In this document: positions 2,695 through 8,215 of the stretch, piece after piece
Layout: each line of letters begins with the position of its first letter
Position numbering within the stretch: the first letter of the stretch is position 1
Virus genome (UHGV): UHGV-0041831
DNA: 12,454 nucleotides
Origin: a virus
Reading direction: 5' to 3' (one strand)
The notes under the pieces: model-generated
What the model saw: only the letters and a program-made list of their open reading frames with translations
Databases searched by the model: none
What the model was told of the DNA's origin: nothing
Translations under genes and position numbers: made by a program

Positions 2695-3162
2695 TTATTT
2701 CAGGCACTGAGTACGGATATATTCCTGCGCCCCTTCCAGTTGCTTCTGCATCGTCATCAGCCGCTCTCTGAGGGTGAAATAATCCCGTGTAACGGTGTCT
2801 GCCAGTTGGGGGCCGGTTGCATTATCCACGCGGGCGGTGCCGGTGGCTTCACGCACGGGACCTGGACAGGTGGCGTTGATACGCAGGCGCTTACGACCAG
2901 CGGCAACGTCAGCGCGAAGAGTTTCATTTTCAGCTTTCGCATCAGCTAACTCCTTCGTGTATTTTGCATCGAGCGCAGCAACATCACGCTGACGCATCTG
3001 CATGTCAGTAATTGCCGCGTTCGCCAGCTTCAGTTCTCTGACATTTTTGTCGCGCTGGGCTTTGTAGGTAATGGCGTTATCACGGTAATGATTCAGCCCC
3101 AGACTAAGCGCACCACAGGCCACCAGCAGGGCAATGATGACCACGCACAGTACGCGGTTCAT
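2695..3162 (-). CDS. Rz: Rz i-spanin (inner-membrane spanin subunit)
   Basis: 155-aa [82 protein letters not shown]..., closely similar to lambda Rz as recalled (N-terminal TM, coiled-coil body). Confidence 0.9.
2757..2942 (-). CDS. Rz1: Rz1 o-spanin lipoprotein, embedded in the +1 frame inside Rz
   Basis: 61-aa [64 protein letters not shown]. It has a lipobox (LVVSAC) and a proline-rich mature region, like lambda Rz1, and is fully nested in Rz. Confidence 0.85.
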
Positions 3163-3163
3163 T

Positions 3164-3262
3164 TCACCACCAGCGTATCTGACCGATGAAATAACCGGAG
3201 GCCATAATCACAAACACCAGCCAGATAAGAATGAACTTCCAGGTGGATAATTTTTCAGCCAT
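3164..3262 (-). CDS. Hypothetical 32-aa single-TM membrane peptide between endolysin and Rz (not in the ORF track)
   Basis: Manual translation gives [38 protein letters not shown] lies 8 nt upstream of the ATG. Its TGA stop (3164-3166) is 1 nt from the Rz ATG (3160-3162), suggesting translational coupling. An in-frame GTG at 3335-3337 could extend it to 57 aa. Confidence 0.3.
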
Positions 3263-3337
3263 CACTCGAATCTCCCGAATCAGTTTGCTAAAATCAAACA
3301 CACTTTCTCCTTTGACTTTTCCGGAGTCAGGAAACAC

Positions 3338-3371
3338 AAAACCCCGCTTGGTGCCAACAAACGGGGTTTTT
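3338..3371. terminator. Bidirectional hairpin with flanking A/T tracts between endolysin and Rz
   Basis: AAAACCCCGCTTGGTGCCAACAAACGGGGTTTTT: stem ACCCCG/CGGGGT with an inner TTGG/CCAA helix, T-run after it on plus and T-run after it on minus (TTTTGTGTTT). Confidence 0.45.
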
Positions 3372-3460
3372 ACTTTTATTCACTTACGTTTCGCCAGTTC
3401 GCAGGATTTCGTGTTATCCGCCCGCGTGGCCATACCTTATTTTTCAGCAAAATATTCTGC

Positions 3461-3994
3461 TTATCTGTCGATTCCCCAGCACGCCAGCGCGCTCTCCTGG
3501 TCACGACGGGATACCTGACCATAACAGTTATTTGAGCGGACACGGCAGTCTCTGCCACCGTCCTTAATCCACCAGCGAATCGCCTCACACGCTCCCCTGC
3601 GATCACCTGCATTAATTCGTTTATAAAACGTCGACGGGAAACACTTACCGGGACCAATGTTGTACGGACAGAATGACGCGATCCCCGCTTTCTGGGGTTC
3701 ACTCAATGGCACTCTGATGTTTTTCTCCACCCATGCCAGCGCCTTATCACGCTCAATGGCGTTAACCCGGTCGCATTTTTCCTTCGACAACTTCATGCCC
3801 GGAACGACAGGTTTGCCATCCACCAGGATGGCACCGCGGCAGATGGTCCAGATACCCGCGCCATCACGGTATGCCGTGGTGTGGTTACCTTCCTTTTCAT
3901 CCAGAAACTGGTCGAGAATGTCAGGCGCAGGCGCACCAGCGGCAATCAGCGCCAGAACGGCAGCCGACAGGCCGTATCTGATTTTTGCGTTCAT
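3461..3994 (-). CDS. Phage endolysin, T4-lysozyme-like muramidase with N-terminal signal-anchor (SAR-type)
   Basis: 177-aa ORF MNAKIRYGLSAAVLALIAAGAPA... followed by E-x8-D-x5-T (EGNHTTAYRDGAGIWT), the catalytic spacing of T4-type lysozymes. The N-terminal hydrophobic, Ala/Gly-rich segment has no Cys, consistent with a SAR domain. A pinholin partner lies upstream. Confidence 0.88.
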   Translation of the reverse strand: MNAKIRYGLSAAVLALIAAGAPAPDILDQFLDEKEGNHTTAYRDGAGIWTICRGAILVDGKPVVPGMKLSKEKCDRVNAIERDKALAWVEKNIRVPLSEPQKAGIASFCPYNIGPGKCFPSTFYKRINAGDRRGACEAIRWWIKDGGRDCRVRSNNCYGQVSRRDQESALACWGIDR

Positions 3995-4099: not shown

Positions 4100-4372
4100 A
4101 TGGACAATAACACCATTTCTCTACAGGAGTTGCTCGACAGCATTTCCAGGCTTCGGGAAGACGTGAATACCCTTACCGTCGCCTTCTCATATCTGGCATT
4201 CTCAATTCCAAGGGAACAGATGCAATCAACGCTGGCATCAATCCAGTTTGAATCATGCAATCCCAAATGGTCTCAGGAACAACAAGACTCTTTCAGGCGG
4301 CTTGCTGTATTACTGGATGAAAAATATGCTGGTAAAATTACCATTTCGGCGGACTCTTCAGAGAACCCGTAA
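4100..4372 (+). CDS. Hypothetical acidic 90-aa protein encoded antisense to the lysis operon
   Basis: ATG at 4100 with a GAGGA Shine-Dalgarno 6 nt upstream (4089-4093) and a candidate -10 TACAAT at 4080-4085. Sequence MDNNTISLQELLDSISRLREDVNTLTVAFSYLAFSIPREQ... has no family I recognise. Its 3' end overlaps the YdfR-like gene by 35 nt in convergent orientation. Confidence 0.5.
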   Translation: MDNNTISLQELLDSISRLREDVNTLTVAFSYLAFSIPREQMQSTLASIQFESCNPKWSQEQQDSFRRLAVLLDEKYAGKITISADSSENP

Positions 4373-4682
4373 TTATTCCCGGTAGTTTTCCTCTGTAGGT
4401 TATCAACACATCCTGCGCCTCTAAAATTACGGGGCGCTTTTCCGGCGACTGCTCATCCCCTTCACATAACCCGGCAGCAACATCCAGGAAGACCTGTCTG
4501 ATGCTCCTTCTGGCTGCTGACTCATAAAACTCCAGCGCTGCACCTTCAACACGGTCCAGCGAGATGTCCAGGTCAAAAATTTCACCGTCAAAGCGTTTTT
4601 TGTCCCGTAACGCTAAAGTTACCGTAACTTTATTCTCAAAATTGCGGATCCCTTTCACAATCAGTTCATAGTTTTGAGTCAT
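4338..4682 (-). CDS. YdfR-like (DUF1327-like) protein between holin and endolysin
   Basis: 114-aa ORF MTQNYELIVKGIRNFENKVTVTLALRDKKRFDGEIFDLDISLDRVEGAALEFYESAARRSIRQVFLDVA..., resembling E. coli Qin prophage YdfR as recalled, which also sits between holin and lysozyme. GGGGAGAG Shine-Dalgarno; start 4 nt after the holin stop. Confidence 0.65.
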   Translation of the reverse strand: MTQNYELIVKGIRNFENKVTVTLALRDKKRFDGEIFDLDISLDRVEGAALEFYESAARRSIRQVFLDVAAGLCEGDEQSPEKRPVILEAQDVLITYRGKLPGIITGSLKSPPKW

Positions 4683-4686
4683 TGAA

Positions 4687-4902
4687 TTACTCTCCCCGTG
4701 CAGCCTTACGACGGTCCTCTCTGATTTTGAAATACAGGTTAGTCAGATATGTCAGCAGCCCAAACAGCAGACTCCCCAGCACGCCTATTGCCGCCCACTG
4801 AGACGGGGAAACCCTGTCCAGCAACTGCAGGAACCAGTAGCCCGTTCCCACCGCTGACGTGGTGTATGACACACCTGTTGTGATTTTTTCCATCTGGTAC
4901 AT
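4687..4902 (-). CDS. Class II holin, phage 21 S-like pinholin with dual-start motif (71-aa and 68-aa products)
   Basis: From Met27 of the track ORF: [71 protein letters not shown], near-collinear with S21 as recalled. Two TM segments, charged C-terminus, Met1-x-x-Met4 dual start, GGGAGA Shine-Dalgarno 6 nt upstream. The N-terminal extension to 4980 in the ORF track is probably not translated. Confidence 0.85.
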
Positions 4903-5052
4903 ACCCCGTCTCCCGTTATCCGGAAGCTGACAACAATAAAAAAAGCCACCAGTTAAGTACTGATGGCTCTGATAACTCATGCAGGCATCTCAGACGACCC
5001 ACTGACACTACCGGTGAGTTTAACGATACCTTCCATTTGGCTGGCTCACTTT

Positions 5053-6906
5053 TTATGATGATGCCGGTGCATTTATCTCCAGCACCAGACTTTCTATCTC
5101 AACGCCATACGCTGCATTTTTGGTAATATCCGTCAGCGTCAGCGCATTCAGCCCCAGTGTCAGACTGTCTTTTATGACCTGGAATGCCGGGCCAGCCACT
5201 CCATTCAGTTTCGGAGTAACCGTGGCACTGCCGGCGGTGAACACCAGCTCCAGCGTCTGCCAGTCGTTACTGTAATTCCCGAACTCGCCCAACTTTGTGT
5301 TTCCTGCTTTCTTGTGATGCATCAGATTCAGTTTGCCGTCTGTGGTCTGGGTGAAGAACGACATCAGGAACGGGTTACCAGTCCCGGTCATCGCCACGAC
5401 GTCAGGTAACGCTACATCGGTATACAGATAAATTCCCAGACCGAACTGGTTGTTGGTCAGTGCGCCTGACAGTCGAAACTTACAGCTCAGTCTGCCACCC
5501 CGTGTCAGCAGGGAGACTGCGTCATCCACCGGGCGCGTCAGGGACCAGGCTTTATTGCTCTGCTTGGTGATCTTAAATACACCATCTGACAACTGAATTC
5601 CGCCATTCTTAATGCTCCAGCCCTGCGCAGCAGCGTCTCCGGCTGTCGGCAACAGGGAGATTGTGCGTATGGATGCATCTTCAGACGGCCCCGATGGCGT
5701 GTCGCCGCCGGGCGAGGGTTTGATTTCCGGTGCCTTACCACTAATGAAGGCTAAGGTGCGACCGGCTACGTTCAGAATAGCAGTTGCCATACGATCGGGA
5801 ATAATGCCACGACGCGCCCATGAGCTGAAATGCGTCGGGCGATTTGATGATACCCAGTTTTTGTTCGTTCGGGATGCCGAACCGTAATAACCAGACCCGG
5901 CAATATCAGGATCTTCTGACGGGTTGTTTGTCGGTGTATTAACTCCGCTACCATCGGTCATAAAGGGAACAAAATAAATCTGCTGGGATTCTTTACCTTT
6001 ATATGCACCATATACCACTTCATATTGCGTACCGTGTTCTTGTTTCCACGCGTATGTCGTGTCGCCACAAATCCAGGGGACTGATGCCGGACTTCCACCG
6101 TGACACTGCGCCGCCAGCCCGGCAAGGTCAGCACGGAACTGCTGTACCATTGCAAGAAATGCTGCTGGCTGCTGGGCGTAACTGGCATTCGTCATATCGA
6201 ATTCCCCCTGCATCCAGCATATCGCCAGCAAAACGTTTTTCGGGTTTTTCTGCAATGCTGCCTTCGTGCGGAAAAGCAGATCCTGATATAACGGCTTACC
6301 CACTCCCCAGCGAGCCGAATCCTGACTGGCTCCCGTGGACTCGCTGAATGTCCCCTCCGTGCCCTGGGTGAATGCCGAACCACCACGACAGCATGGTACC
6401 AGCAGGATCCCCGCATTATTAGGGATATACGGAAGCAGTTTTTTGGCAATATGTAAGCCCTGTCCGACACAGCCGTACTGCCCTTTGCTCAGGTCAGCCC
6501 GGGGATGGTTAATCGTACTCATATCCTGAACATCATGCAGACAATGGTCAGCAGGAATGATGTCGTTAAATACGCATACTTCACCACCGGGAGTCACTGT
6601 GTTACGACGGGCCAGTTGCTTAATGCGCGGATGGGGCGCATCGTATGAATCCGGAAGCGGAAGCCCTTCACCGTAAGCCATGGCATTGGATTGCCCGGCC
6701 AGTACGATGACGTAGTACCACTCCGGCTCAGTTGCACCACTGACGACCACATCACCTTCTGCTGCAATCGCCTGCATCAGGGTATAAGGGGTTATGGCCA
6801 CCGGACTACCAAACGGCTGCCAGCCCTCCTTCAGTTTTTGTGTCAGTCGTTTCGCAAGGTCTGACGGCGATGCCGCCCTGACCACGTCATAGTGTTTAAA
6901 TGCCAT
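5053..6906 (-). CDS. Prophage NanS-p-like sialate O-acetylesterase (SGNH/DUF303 esterase plus C-terminal domain)
   Basis: 617-aa ORF with a strong GGGAGG Shine-Dalgarno. N-terminal block VIVLAGQSNAMAYGEG carries the GQSN esterase motif. Size, domain layout and position upstream of the holin match the NanS-p/YjhS-like genes that follow stx in Stx phages, as recalled. Confidence 0.85.
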   Translation of the reverse strand: MAFKHYDVVRAASPSDLAKRLTQKLKEGWQPFGSPVAITPYTLMQAIAAEGDVVVSGATEPEWYYVIVLAGQSNAMAYGEGLPLPDSYDAPHPRIKQLARRNTVTPGGEVCVFNDIIPADHCLHDVQDMSTINHPRADLSKGQYGCVGQGLHIAKKLLPYIPNNAGILLVPCCRGGSAFTQGTEGTFSESTGASQDSARWGVGKPLYQDLLFRTKAALQKNPKNVLLAICWMQGEFDMTNASYAQQPAAFLAMVQQFRADLAGLAAQCHGGSPASVPWICGDTTYAWKQEHGTQYEVVYGAYKGKESQQIYFVPFMTDGSGVNTPTNNPSEDPDIAGSGYYGSASRTNKNWVSSNRPTHFSSWARRGIIPDRMATAILNVAGRTLAFISGKAPEIKPSPGGDTPSGPSEDASIRTISLLPTAGDAAAQGWSIKNGGIQLSDGVFKITKQSNKAWSLTRPVDDAVSLLTRGGRLSCKFRLSGALTNNQFGLGIYLYTDVALPDVVAMTGTGNPFLMSFFTQTTDGKLNLMHHKKAGNTKLGEFGNYSNDWQTLELVFTAGSATVTPKLNGVAGPAFQVIKDSLTLGLNALTLTDITKNAAYGVEIESLVLEINAPASS

Positions 6907-7206: not shown

Positions 7207-7217
7207 TTTTTTTGTCC

Positions 7218-7393
7218 ATAAGAAAGCCCCTCCGGAGAGGGGCTAAAGCCGCGTATCTGTATCATCATGCACATGGTGCCGGGTGCCTCCCGGTGAGTTC
7301 AGCCCGGTGCCACTAAACCCGCGTCATTCTCGTTTTGATAATCAGAGATTATACCGTCACCAGTCGCCCCTCCGCTCAGGGGGATTCACCATG
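7218..7393 (-). ncRNA. Tandem unit A: candidate structured small RNA
   Basis: Minus-strand order: promoter-like TTGACA (7432-7437) and TTGTTAAAAAAA, then a 5' block CATGGTGAATCCCCCTGAGCGGAGGGGC, a variable core, a 3' block TCACCGGGAGGCACCCGGCACCATG, then the terminator. 5' CATGGTG can pair with 3' CACCATG; internal hairpins CCCCT/AGGGG and CCGGG/CCCGG. No conserved ORF (frames differ between units A and B). Confidence 0.35.
7225..7244 (-). terminator. Intrinsic terminator of tandem unit A (minus orientation)
   Basis: Perfect 8-bp stem AGCCCCTC/GAGGGGCT with a 4-nt loop, followed on the minus strand by TTCTTATGG. Confidence 0.5.
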
Positions 7394-7495
7394 CGAAATT
7401 TTTTTAACAAATGCCCAGTCTGACAGGCAACTGTCAACTTACTGAATTGTGAGCAACATAGCATTTAACGGGGAACCTGTTTTCTGCAGTAAAAA

Positions 7496-7517: not shown

Positions 7518-7703
7518 TGGAAGGATAGCGGTCATGTGATGCCGGTTTCCCGGTAACTCAGCACCGGTATCTGAGTCAACGTTTTCTCTACTGGGTCATT
7601 TCCGATACGCCCTGCCTGCTGACAGGCTTTCATCACATCTGAAAATATAGCACCCTGACTGATACTGTAGTACCTAAGGTTCCAGAAACTGTGATGTATC
7701 CGG

Positions 7704-7861
7704 CACAGAAAAGCCCCTCCGGAGAGGGGCTGGAGAGTGGCGCTATGTGCCATTGCATGGTGCCGGGTGCCTCCCGGTGAATTCAGTACCAGCACCTGAA
7801 TCCGCGATTATCCCATATACCTACTCGCTGATTGCCCCTCCGCACAGGGGGATTCACCATG
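7704..7861 (-). ncRNA. Tandem unit B: candidate structured small RNA (diverged paralogue of unit A)
   Basis: Same architecture as unit A: TTGACT (7900-7905) and TTGTTAAAAG, then 5' block CATGGTGAATCCCCCTGTGCGGAGGGGC (7834-7861), variable core, 3' block TCACCGGGAGGCACCCGGCACCATG (7756-7780), then terminator. The conserved blocks are near-identical to unit A while the core differs. Confidence 0.35.
7712..7731 (-). terminator. Intrinsic terminator of tandem unit B (minus orientation)
   Basis: Same 8-bp stem AGCCCCTC/GAGGGGCT as unit A, followed on the minus strand by TTTTCTGTG. Confidence 0.55.
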
Positions 7862-7934
7862 CCAGTTTCTTTTAACAAACTCCCCGCAAACCAGACAACA
7901 GTCAACCGCCTGAATTGTGAGACATTTAAAAAAA

Positions 7935-7965: not shown

Positions 7966-8042
7966 TGGCGCGTTGTACTGGATTCGAACCAGTGACCGAT
8001 TGCTTAGAAGGCAATTGCTCTGTCCGGCTGAGCTAACAACGC
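7966..8042 (-). tRNA. argO: tRNA-Arg (anticodon UCU), phage-encoded
   Basis: Manual cloverleaf: acceptor GCGTTGT/ACAACGC, D-arm GCTC...GAGC, anticodon stem ATTGC/GCAAT with loop CTTCTAA (anticodon TCT), T-arm ACTGG-TTCGAAT-CCAGT, discriminator G, encoded CCA. Symbol given by analogy with the Stx-phage tRNA cluster. Confidence 0.8.
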
Positions 8043-8055
8043 AGGATACAGATAA

Positions 8056-8132
8056 TGGACCGCCTTCGGGGACCCGAACTCCGCGCAACCAGCTTCGAAA
8101 GCTGGCGCTCTTTCCTGATGAGCTAATGGCGG
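8056..8132 (-). tRNA. argN: tRNA-Arg-like (anticodon UCG) with non-canonical features; possibly degenerate
   Basis: Manual fold: D-arm GCTC-ATCAGGAAA-GAGC, perfect anticodon stem CCAGC/GCTGG with loop TTTCGAA (anticodon TCG), encoded CCA. But the acceptor stem starts with C and has one mismatch, the T-stem has an A-C mismatch, and the T-loop is TTCGGGT (G at the usual A58 position). Confidence 0.55.
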
Positions 8133-8139
8133 TATGTGA

Positions 8140-8215
8140 TGGTGGCCCTTGCTGGATTTGAACCAGCGACCTGGCGATTATGAGTCGCTCGCTCTCACCA
8201 CTGAGCTAAAGGGCC
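8140..8215 (-). tRNA. ileZ: tRNA with CAU anticodon (Ile2/lysidine type or Met)
   Basis: Manual cloverleaf: acceptor GGCCCTT/AAGGGCC, D-arm GCTC-AGTGGTGA-GAGC, anticodon loop CTCATAA (CAT), T-arm GCTGG-TTCAAAT-CCAGC, discriminator A, encoded CCA. Symbol by analogy with the Stx-phage ileZ-argN-argO cluster. Confidence 0.75.

Follow-up and report, generated by a model that had tools for sequence, protein, structure and literature searches.

A 12,454-nt stretch of the virus genome UHGV-0041831 (the window) carries, between the genes for its R endolysin and its Rz i-spanin, a compact cassette made of a terminator-type hairpin (hairpin 1), a second stem that folds over a ribosome-binding site (RBS; hairpin 2) and a small open reading frame (ORF) for a 45-residue peptide with one predicted transmembrane (TM) helix. 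We are confident that this is a real and conserved membrane-protein cassette. Comparison of its homologues shows that the hairpin and the ORF travel as a single portable, horizontally mobile cassette and are not two independent features of the operon. The reading that we favour, with the chances evenly balanced, is that the peptide gene is kept silent by its own antisense RNA from within the portable cassette. A first-pass annotation had described an insert of about 300 bp at this junction. The gap measures 298 bp, and consists of about 80 nt that belong to the R module (3381–3460) and a cassette proper of about 217 bp (3164–3380). The insert was rightly recognized as extra DNA relative to cassettes in which R and Rz abut or overlap; phage Evi and K-12 Qin both have overlapping genes here. 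Qin was also considered as a source of an annotated homologue and was rejected: its rrrQ and rzpQ overlap, leaving no space for an insert, and the ORF has no counterpart among the Ynf small proteins.

The ORF had been proposed to encode 32 residues from an ATG at 3262, with a GGGAGA motif upstream and a stop codon 1 nt short of the Rz start. The frame, the ATG and the motif are all present, and the stop (TGA, 3166–3164) is separated by a single nucleotide from the Rz ATG at 3162. The length did not stand, however. The frame is open upstream of that ATG, which encodes Met14, and the start conserved throughout the family is a GTG at 3301, giving 45 residues. Among 266 homologous loci, gathered by protein and DNA-pattern searches and then by scans of metagenomes and IMG/VR, the start codon was GTG in 229 and TTG in 29 and in no case ATG; homologues also retain a Shine-Dalgarno (SD)-like AAGGAG, AGGGAG or ACGAGG in the same place. 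The open frame of 57 residues matched the profile of phrog_6632, a catalogued PHROG family of unknown function, with residues 13–57 aligned to positions 1–45 of the 45-position profile (E = 1.4e-29). In some but not most E. coli genomes, PGAP calls precisely this 138-nt gene, with its product (WP_000459345.1) given as hypothetical.

The single TM helix that had been predicted was supported by hydropathy analysis, in which the Kyte-Doolittle 19-residue mean exceeded 2.0 for residues 22–42. The helix is placed at residues 23–42 (nt 3176–3235), with only the residues RWW beyond it, and the N-terminal half of the peptide is charged and amphipathic (+5/−3 charges, hydrophobic moment 1.36). The predicted topology is that of a single-pass inner-membrane protein with the N-terminus in the cytoplasm and the RWW end in the periplasm.

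Codon-level figures were derived from 33 non-redundant sequences. In codons 23–45 the third-position entropy was 1.41 bits, compared to 0.32 bits at second positions, and synonymous divergence (pS) was 0.77 against a nonsynonymous divergence (pN) of 0.25, for a pN/pS of 0.32. Arg43 is written with all of six codons (CGC, CGT, CGA, CGG, AGG and AGA). The tryptophans W21, W27 and W44 are unchanged throughout, and W21, K22, W27, R43 and W44 are invariant or nearly so from E. coli to Pantoea, Edwardsiella and an Azoarcus metagenome-assembled genome (MAG), while the length is 45 codons in about 90% of the loci. Loss of the frame in homologues, by frameshifts or stops, would have argued against a peptide gene; the frame is kept, and this objection is avoided because codons 23–45 evolve like those of a protein. 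A few copies (P0026, P0027 and P0031) are frameshifted, and these presumably represent decaying prophages. By the pattern of substitution, the ORF is thus shown to be a conserved protein-coding gene for a membrane peptide. A long antisense ORF over the same region (3231–3518), annotated in the CP-1639 record, was rejected as a gene, since it runs through the non-conserved flank.

The distribution of the R–insert–Rz arrangement was assessed with a 421-bp query that begins within R, crosses the insert and ends within Rz, at a coverage of at least 80%. It was covered in 871 of 5426 complete E. coli genomes (≈16%) and in 39 phage records, mostly of Stx1a, Stx2a and Stx2c phages and H-19B. At the protein level, 35 database proteins were homologous to the peptide, and the 266 loci, a sample biased towards E. 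coli lambdoid prophages, yielded 44 distinct peptides from about 15 genera. Relatives were found in E. albertii, E. fergusonii, Salmonella, Citrobacter, Trabulsiella, Yersinia and Edwardsiella, and further in Sodalis, Izhakiella, Brenneria, Pantoea, Symbiopectobacterium and Serratia; more distant ones, at 46–50% identity, come from the Azoarcus MAG and from Pseudomonas phages. The CP-1639 record names the product a "putative bacteriophage protein", and the ORF is left unannotated in the H-19B record, in most other phage GenBank records and in many RefSeq genomes. Searches of Pfam, NCBIfam, PADLOC and PDB sequences with the peptide or its profile gave no match.

The evidence for a portable unit comes from the contexts in which it is found. 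Hairpin 1, the RBS stem and the ORF always occur together. In every context, nucleotide homology extends from an A-rich tract before the hairpin to the stop codon of the ORF; the tract lies directly upstream of the hairpin in all contexts, and the sequence further upstream is unrelated. The GC content of the cassette is 43%, compared to 55% in R and Rz. An endolysin gene is found directly upstream in 198 of the 266 loci (≈74%), a share that is inflated because E. coli lambdoid prophages dominate the sample. These endolysins include GH24, GH19 and M15 peptidase types, all with Pfam confirmation, and two more types (GH108 and one with an NNPGNIR motif) that were judged by sequence only. The GH24 enzymes comprise both apparently membrane-tethered and apparently soluble forms, and the presence of the cassette is uncorrelated with endolysin type in this respect. 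Downstream, the i-spanins belong to three unrelated families (PF03245, DUF2514 and phrog_1026). The junction of stop codon, one nucleotide and ATG that had been noticed in the window recurs with all three families, and the next gene starts 1 nt past the ORF stop in 163 loci. In another 36 loci, the cassette is flanked by a baseplate central-spike gene, recognized by PF18352 and the GpV Apex motif (PF18946), and by a wedge-subunit gene (phrog_120); the gap is 3–15 nt. A few more loci, with no spanin nearby, have it after a gene of the tail-fibre-like, very long tail or antirepressor-like kind, in some cases as the last element of the operon. The endolysin–spanin junction is clearly favoured, and the cassette is not confined to lysis modules. 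The dedicated lysis regulator suggested by the first-pass annotation was therefore not established: the same cassette occurs at baseplate, tail and antirepressor-like genes, and its presence between baseplate spike and wedge genes means that it is not lysis-specific, which weakens the regulator interpretation.

Several related arrangements were seen in the same survey. In three loci (L206–L208, 2489–2892), two tandem paralogues of the peptide gene precede a baseplate gene, with neither an adjacent hairpin nor the antisense −10 element described below; one of the two has an ATG start and a different N-terminus. In E. fergusonii (L013–L015, ≈3660–3910), a second cassette lies directly upstream of the phrog_6632 cassette and has a homologous hairpin, leader and RBS. 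Its ORF encodes a 50-residue TM peptide (phrog_12997) that ends in KWW-TGA-T-ATG and has the same internal layout of an SD motif and ATG, and it is followed by an apparent remnant of an Rz start (MSRV...). In phages of the 933W/Sakai type (L005, 1102–1817; L111, 3749–4464; L272, 5056–5771), the slot between R and Rz is instead occupied by an antirepressor gene and a translationally coupled 48-residue TM ORF. The latter is phrog_4906 (e.g., ECs_5741 and ECs_1966), is unrelated to phrog_6632, and ends 7 nt before Rz. Alignment of the phrog_6632 profile with those of phrog_4906 and phrog_12997 in hhalign gave no protein homology (probability <2%).

Hairpin 1 has the sequence AAAACCCCGTTTG-TTGGCAC-CAAGCGGGGTTTT, with 6 of its 13 pairs G-C, and is followed on its 3' side by UUUUGUGUUUCC on the minus strand and by UUUUUACUUUU on the plus strand. 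T-rich tracts are thus present on both strands, as had been noted, and the stem is free of mismatches on the minus strand only. A GC-rich stem-loop followed by a U-rich tract fits, by its sequence, an intrinsic (Rho-independent) terminator, and a terminator scan called hairpin 1 on the minus strand. Because such a match alone is not above chance (three terminator-like matches in 2.7 kb, with 2.6 expected), the case rests on comparative data. Among 34 distinct homologues, 94% of the cells in the alignment were paired, compared to 86% in shuffles, and 8 of 12 pairs had changed on both sides, compared to 3.6 expected; for both measures, none of 500 shuffles was as high. Controls in which the stem was slid along the alignment reached 40–61% pairing. 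Through this covariation, hairpin 1 is shown to be a real conserved stem, of the intrinsic-terminator type by its sequence, in agreement with the terminator-like structure first proposed.

Hairpin 2 follows, with its 3' arm abutting the RBS. Here, UUUCCUGACU pairs with AGUC and AGGAGA, so that the U-tract of the terminator pairs with the ribosome-binding site, which is covered by the U-tract together with a stem of 4–5 bp. The pairing of this stem is maintained among the homologues with at least five different sequences: CCTTG/CAAGG, TGACT/AGTCA, CGTTA/TAACG, GGCAG/CTGCC and CCTG/CAGG. A match of hairpin 1 to the rimP-leader family in a permissive Rfam search was rejected as chance.

Beyond the hairpins, a second layer of constraint lies within the 5' end of the ORF itself. 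In codons 2–13, pS was 0.29, compared to the 0.77 of codons 23–45, showing that these codons are constrained not just as amino acids but also as DNA. A search for conserved mRNA structure over codons 1–25 with RNAalifold found none that would explain the synonymous constraint. Arg12 is CGA in all 33 sequences, and CGA is the sole Arg codon that places T−35 and G−33 on the opposite strand. Asp3 is always GAT. Codon 4 always ends in T, which corresponds to A−11 of a −10 element, while its first base may be any of the four (TTT, ATT, CTT, GTT or CCT). Ser5 is AGC, with the C supplying a TG motif, and in Azoarcus, which has Ile at this position, the codon is ATC and the C is kept. Codons 7, 8, 11 and 13, in or beside what would be the spacer, vary freely; codons 9–10 are conserved, which fits the ribosome-binding site for a possible internal start. 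On the opposite strand, the invariant bases read TCG(−35)-17 bp-TGnTAAAAT, and thereby supply T−35, G−33, the TG, A−11 and T−7.

From this pattern, an antisense promoter of the sigma-70 extended −10 class is likely to be written into codons 3–12. Its predicted parts are a −35 element TCGAAT (3266–3271), a 17-bp spacer, the TG (3286–3287) and a −10 element TAAAAT (3289–3294). Promoters were scored with a simple position-weight matrix of our own, and with this matrix the site had the highest sigma-70-like score on either strand of the 12.4-kb window, at 10.2 bits. The same aligned position was the top antisense site in 33 of 36 hairpin-bearing representatives, and in the three hairpin-less paralogues, which start with ATG, the antisense site was also missing. 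Another plus-strand promoter-like site reported by a scan tool (3179–3208) was rejected, since it falls in the synonymously variable 3' half of the gene.

An RNA started from the predicted promoter would be complementary to the start codon, the RBS and the 5' leader of the peptide gene, and would end at hairpin 1 and a U-tail. Its predicted fold has a free energy of −23.2 kcal/mol (z-score −3.1) and consists of two hairpins and the U-tail. We regard the existence of this antisense RNA as evenly poised. On the antisense model, the A-tract at the edge of the cassette would encode the U-tail of the RNA, which would account for its being part of the conserved unit. The second cassette of E. fergusonii has the same hairpin, the CGTTA/TAACG stem, the RBS and the −10 region (TCTAGCAA), followed by a different ORF body; the leader and the first codons thus behave as a unit of their own.

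We considered the possibility that the constraint reflects translation signals only, namely an unstructured initiation region at GTG1 and an internal SD and ATG14 that would together yield two isoforms, with no antisense RNA, and with the hairpin serving just as a sense-strand terminator or RNA-stabilizing stem. This is the alternative to which we give the most weight, though we think it unlikely. The arrangement GGGAG-9 nt-ATG14 is invariant: the Met14 ATG is present in 33 of 33 representatives and the GAG codon of E10, which has no role in the predicted promoter, in 32 of 33. The SD-like motif before ATG14 also survives changes of residue, for example in Azoarcus (AAGGAA) and in one of the tandem paralogues (L208_2), and phrog_12997 has the same internal SD and ATG. 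These features make ATG14 a candidate internal start. Both hairpins, moreover, are more stable on the sense strand (hairpin 1 in 28 of 36 representatives and hairpin 2 in 27 of 34), so that the sense RNA, at least, is under selection. However, translation signals leave unexplained why Arg12 is always CGA, as this codon falls after the internal SD, 4–6 nt before the ATG. Nor do they explain the fixed third bases of codons 3–6, including the G/C-ending AGC, the conserved A-tract edge that would form the antisense U-tail, or why the best promoter-like match of the window should lie here.

Other observations also weigh against silencing by an antisense RNA, together with the sense-strand stability of the hairpins and the part of the constraint (GGGAG and ATG14) that is better matched to an internal start of translation. 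Of the six bases of the −35 element only three match, and hairpin 1 on the plus strand contains one A·C mismatch in this window. A/T-rich early codons are generally favoured for initiation. Counts across the representatives are not independent, given their phylogenetic relatedness, and the scoring matrix was our own. No promoter for the cassette was found on the sense strand in the scans, where the best minus-strand sites reached at most 7.5 bits and were not conserved. In Rfam searches at gathering thresholds over the whole window and with permissive settings over 3000–3600, no family was found in the region, and a full-text search of the literature on the sequence or its accessions found no mention of the peptide. 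Baseplate operons may lack antitermination, and a strong terminator would be polar there. As transcript evidence, the Sakai Hfq-CRAC list (Tree et al. 2014, Table S2) was set aside: its peak EcOnc11 maps downstream of Rz, and the list is uninformative for the cassette because the Sakai prophages checked, Sp10 and Sp15, carry the antirepressor (ant)-type insert.

If the peptide gene is indeed silenced by an antisense RNA, four layers would keep it off: the sense-strand terminator, the occluded RBS, the weak GTG start and the probable cis-antisense RNA. The antisense transcript would start near 3301, across from the start codon, copy the anti-RBS leader and end at hairpin 1, which could terminate transcription in both directions. 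Upon induction, Q-modified (antiterminated) late transcription would pass the hairpin and outnumber the antisense RNA. The peptide, potentially membrane-active, would then be made and insert into the inner membrane, and ribosomes ending at the UGA could restart 1 nt downstream on Rz, for which GGUGGUGA in the last codons of the ORF (RWW-stop) is a candidate ribosome-binding site. Read-through, coupling to Rz, and toxicity or another activity of the peptide are steps that we infer, and we lean towards a late-acting envelope function rather than one in the lysogen.

A role in lysis is possible, if rather doubtful. More specifically, the cassette might be a dedicated lysis accessory that regulates lysis timing, endolysin release or spanin function, with read-through of the hairpin setting the ratio of R to Rz. 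Its frequency behind endolysins (198 of 266 loci) and the 163 loci in which the next gene follows after 1 nt speak for this, as does its association with five endolysin types and three unrelated spanin families. The unrelated small TM ORFs phrog_4906 (933W/Sakai type) and phrog_12997 (E. fergusonii) occupy the same slot before Rz, and the two starts at GTG1 and ATG14, each with an SD, recall the dual starts of holins and antiholins. A dedicated accessory is nevertheless unlikely, given the 36 spike–wedge loci and the others after tail-fibre-like, very long tail or antirepressor-like genes, where no spanin is nearby, the lack of correlation with endolysin type, and the inflation of the endolysin share by E. 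coli lambdoid prophages. The peptide also lacks the charged C-terminal domain typical of holins.

We think it less likely still that the cassette is a classical moron that serves the lysogen, for example by superinfection exclusion at the inner membrane, with the hairpin insulating it from the late operon. It is extra DNA of deviant composition (43% vs. 55% GC) between late genes in many phage types, and small inner-membrane exclusion proteins such as HK97 gp15 are carried as morons. The region downstream of PR' has been described as tolerant of morons (Tree et al.). However, there is no sense promoter in or near the cassette, as the low-scoring and non-conserved minus-strand sites show, and the terminator precedes the gene instead of following it. 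With a GTG start and an occluded RBS, the gene would be expected to be expressed at a very low level rather than constitutively. Finally, the many unannotated records and the three frameshifted copies might suggest a chance ORF in non-coding debris, at a mosaic junction beside the terminator of R. This is hardly credible: the frame, its 45-codon length and W21/K22/W27/R43/W44 are kept across genera, and the saturated third positions of the 3' half contradict it.

The cassette was compared to known systems that it resembles in part. With type I toxin–antitoxin (TA) loci, such as symE/symR and also tisB/istR-1, shoB/ohsC and zor/orz, it shares a small single-TM peptide of fewer than 60 residues (here 45, with a Kyte-Doolittle mean >2.0 over residues 22–42), a sequestered RBS and a weak start. 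The layout of SymR over symE resembles that of the predicted antisense RNA (PMC4147584), and type I TA loci are known on prophages (PMC7699646, PMC5848175). Unlike these loci, the cassette has no promoter of its own for the peptide gene and sits behind a terminator in a late operon. It has no conserved sense promoter that would make it an autonomous toxin locus; its left edge is the A-tract of the hairpin, and only about 35 nt lie between the hairpin and the SD. Its ORF abuts the next late gene, with translational coupling proposed, and the antisense RNA and toxicity are putative. No sequence similarity to known toxin families was found in the Pfam, NCBIfam, PADLOC and PDB searches. With morons (Juhala/Hendrix; HK97 gp15, lambda bor), the cassette shares its nature as an extra low-GC insert at varied late-operon junctions that encodes a small envelope protein. 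Morons, however, are defined by a promoter in front and a terminator behind, whereas here the terminator is in front and the only strong promoter-like site is on the opposite strand; the extra DNA and deviant composition fit, and the own promoter and downstream terminator are lacking.

The small membrane proteins of lysis systems (the antiholins lambda S107 and S21-71, the Mu releasin gp25 and P2 LysA) have in common with the peptide its small size, the cassette setting and the two candidate SD starts, but the cassette is not confined to lysis, and the peptide has no homology to them and no charged C-terminal tail. As regards holins, only RWW follows the TM helix, there was no match to a holin family in Pfam or PHROG, and adjacency to an endolysin is not universal. 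Two further parallels, phrog_4906 (48 residues) and phrog_12997 (50 residues), fill the same slot directly ahead of the i-spanin gene; each is comparable in size and has a single TM helix. The latter shares the whole hairpin and leader with the phrog_6632 cassette and ends in KWW-TGA-N-ATG, whereas phrog_4906, which is coupled to ant, comes without a hairpin. We assign the cassette to none of the type I TA, moron and holin classes. More speculatively, it might be the founding member of a class not yet recognized: a promoter-less, type I TA-like "late fuse" in phage late operons, whose membrane-active peptide would be silenced in the lysogen by antisense RNA and fired only by antiterminated late transcription. 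Together with phrog_4906 and phrog_12997, it would then mark an extra, so far overlooked component of Gram-negative lysis cassettes, acting for example on the inner membrane or in spanin deployment.

The features of the locus are collected in Table 1; the lysis genes of the window are all on the minus strand. R, the upstream neighbour of the cassette and outside it, has an N-terminal hydrophobic stretch that reads as a putative signal-anchor-release (SAR) signal. Homology to the corresponding locus of an Stx2a phage (L005, Stx2a_WGPS2) starts at the R stop, extends to GTGAATAAAG and breaks exactly at the hairpin. The minus-strand stretch 3381–3460 is common to cassettes of the present type and of the ant type, and some of it is also conserved in Salmonella (CTGAAAAAT...GGATAACA.GAAATCCT).

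Table 1. Features of the R–Rz junction and neighbouring lysis genes in the window.
Feature	Position	Strand	Basis or remark
S21-type holin	within 4687–4980	minus	PF04971
YdfR/DUF1327 gene	4338–4682	minus	
R endolysin, 177 residues, phage lysozyme	3461–3994	minus	Pfam PF00959, E=1e-23; phrog_7; RefSeq "lysozyme"
Segment of ~80 nt directly after R	3381–3460	minus	common to ant-type (933W/Sakai-like) cassettes; outside the portable cassette
A-rich tract AATAAAAGTA that bounds the cassette on the left; read on the plus strand, the U-rich tail that follows the hairpin	3371–3380	minus	
Hairpin 1, terminator-type, 13 pairs, 7-nt loop	3338–3370	minus; also folds on plus	
Hairpin 2, RBS-occluding stem	3306–3334	minus	minimum free energy fold, z-score −2.7
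Shine-Dalgarno AAGGAG, 5-nt spacer to GTG 3301	3307–3312	minus	read from the sequence
Small ORF, 45 residues from GTG, stop included	3164–3301	minus	phrog_6632; PGAP WP_000459345.1
Possible internal start: GGGAG 3276–3272, 9-nt spacer, ATG (Met14) 3262–3260	3260–3276	minus	
Predicted antisense sigma-70 extended −10 promoter	3266–3294	plus	own position-weight matrix scan, conserved codons
Predicted cis-antisense RNA, ~77 nt	3301–3379	plus	start inferred from the promoter position
Rz i-spanin, 155 residues	2695–3162	minus	Pfam PF03245, E=4e-51
Rz1, embedded within Rz	2757–2942	minus	

Some other features of the window were observed outside the cassette. Between the YdfR-like gene and R, the plus strand carries an ORF of 90 residues (4100–4372; phrog_2411, E=1e-58; hypothetical in RefSeq), which forms an antisense interruption of the lysis cassette. 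A terminator-like hairpin with a T run (4942–4970, minus strand) lies between an esterase gene (5053–6906) and the holin start. The small RNAs (sRNAs) PasA and PasC have been placed in this esterase–holin slot (2026 preprint); the preprint was set aside as evidence for the insert, since it concerns that gap and not the one between R and Rz. Upstream of the esterase gene, on the minus strand, are two full-length matches to the Rfam sRNA family STnc100 (7214–7423 and 7701–7891, at 165 and 136 bits) and three tRNA genes (7969–8042, 8059–8132 and 8143–8215). This layout resembles the region downstream of Q in Stx-type lambdoid prophages, and the window has no stx genes. Just downstream of Rz, the plus strand at about 2573–2621 falls in a stretch with 93% identity over 266 nt to the region of Sakai Sp10 that holds the Hfq-CRAC peak EcOnc11, of which EcOnc10 and EcOnc12 are homologues (Tree et al. 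2014, Table S2). Because of this identity, an Hfq-bound RNA antisense to the late operon is likely at this position.

Phages of the Stx1, Stx2a and Stx2c types carry the cassette, the classic H-19B among them, as do prophages from about 15 genera, and most records leave it unannotated. For annotation pipelines, it adds a well-supported and currently missed gene of 45 residues with its correct GTG start. If the antisense promoter is real, it would be a clean example of a promoter written in synonymous codon choice, and if the antisense RNA is real, the cassette would represent a new family and layout of small-toxin/antisense systems, promoter-less, located in a late operon and coupled to the next gene. 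A late action of the peptide on the envelope, if there is one, would matter for the timing of lysis and hence for the release of Shiga toxin.

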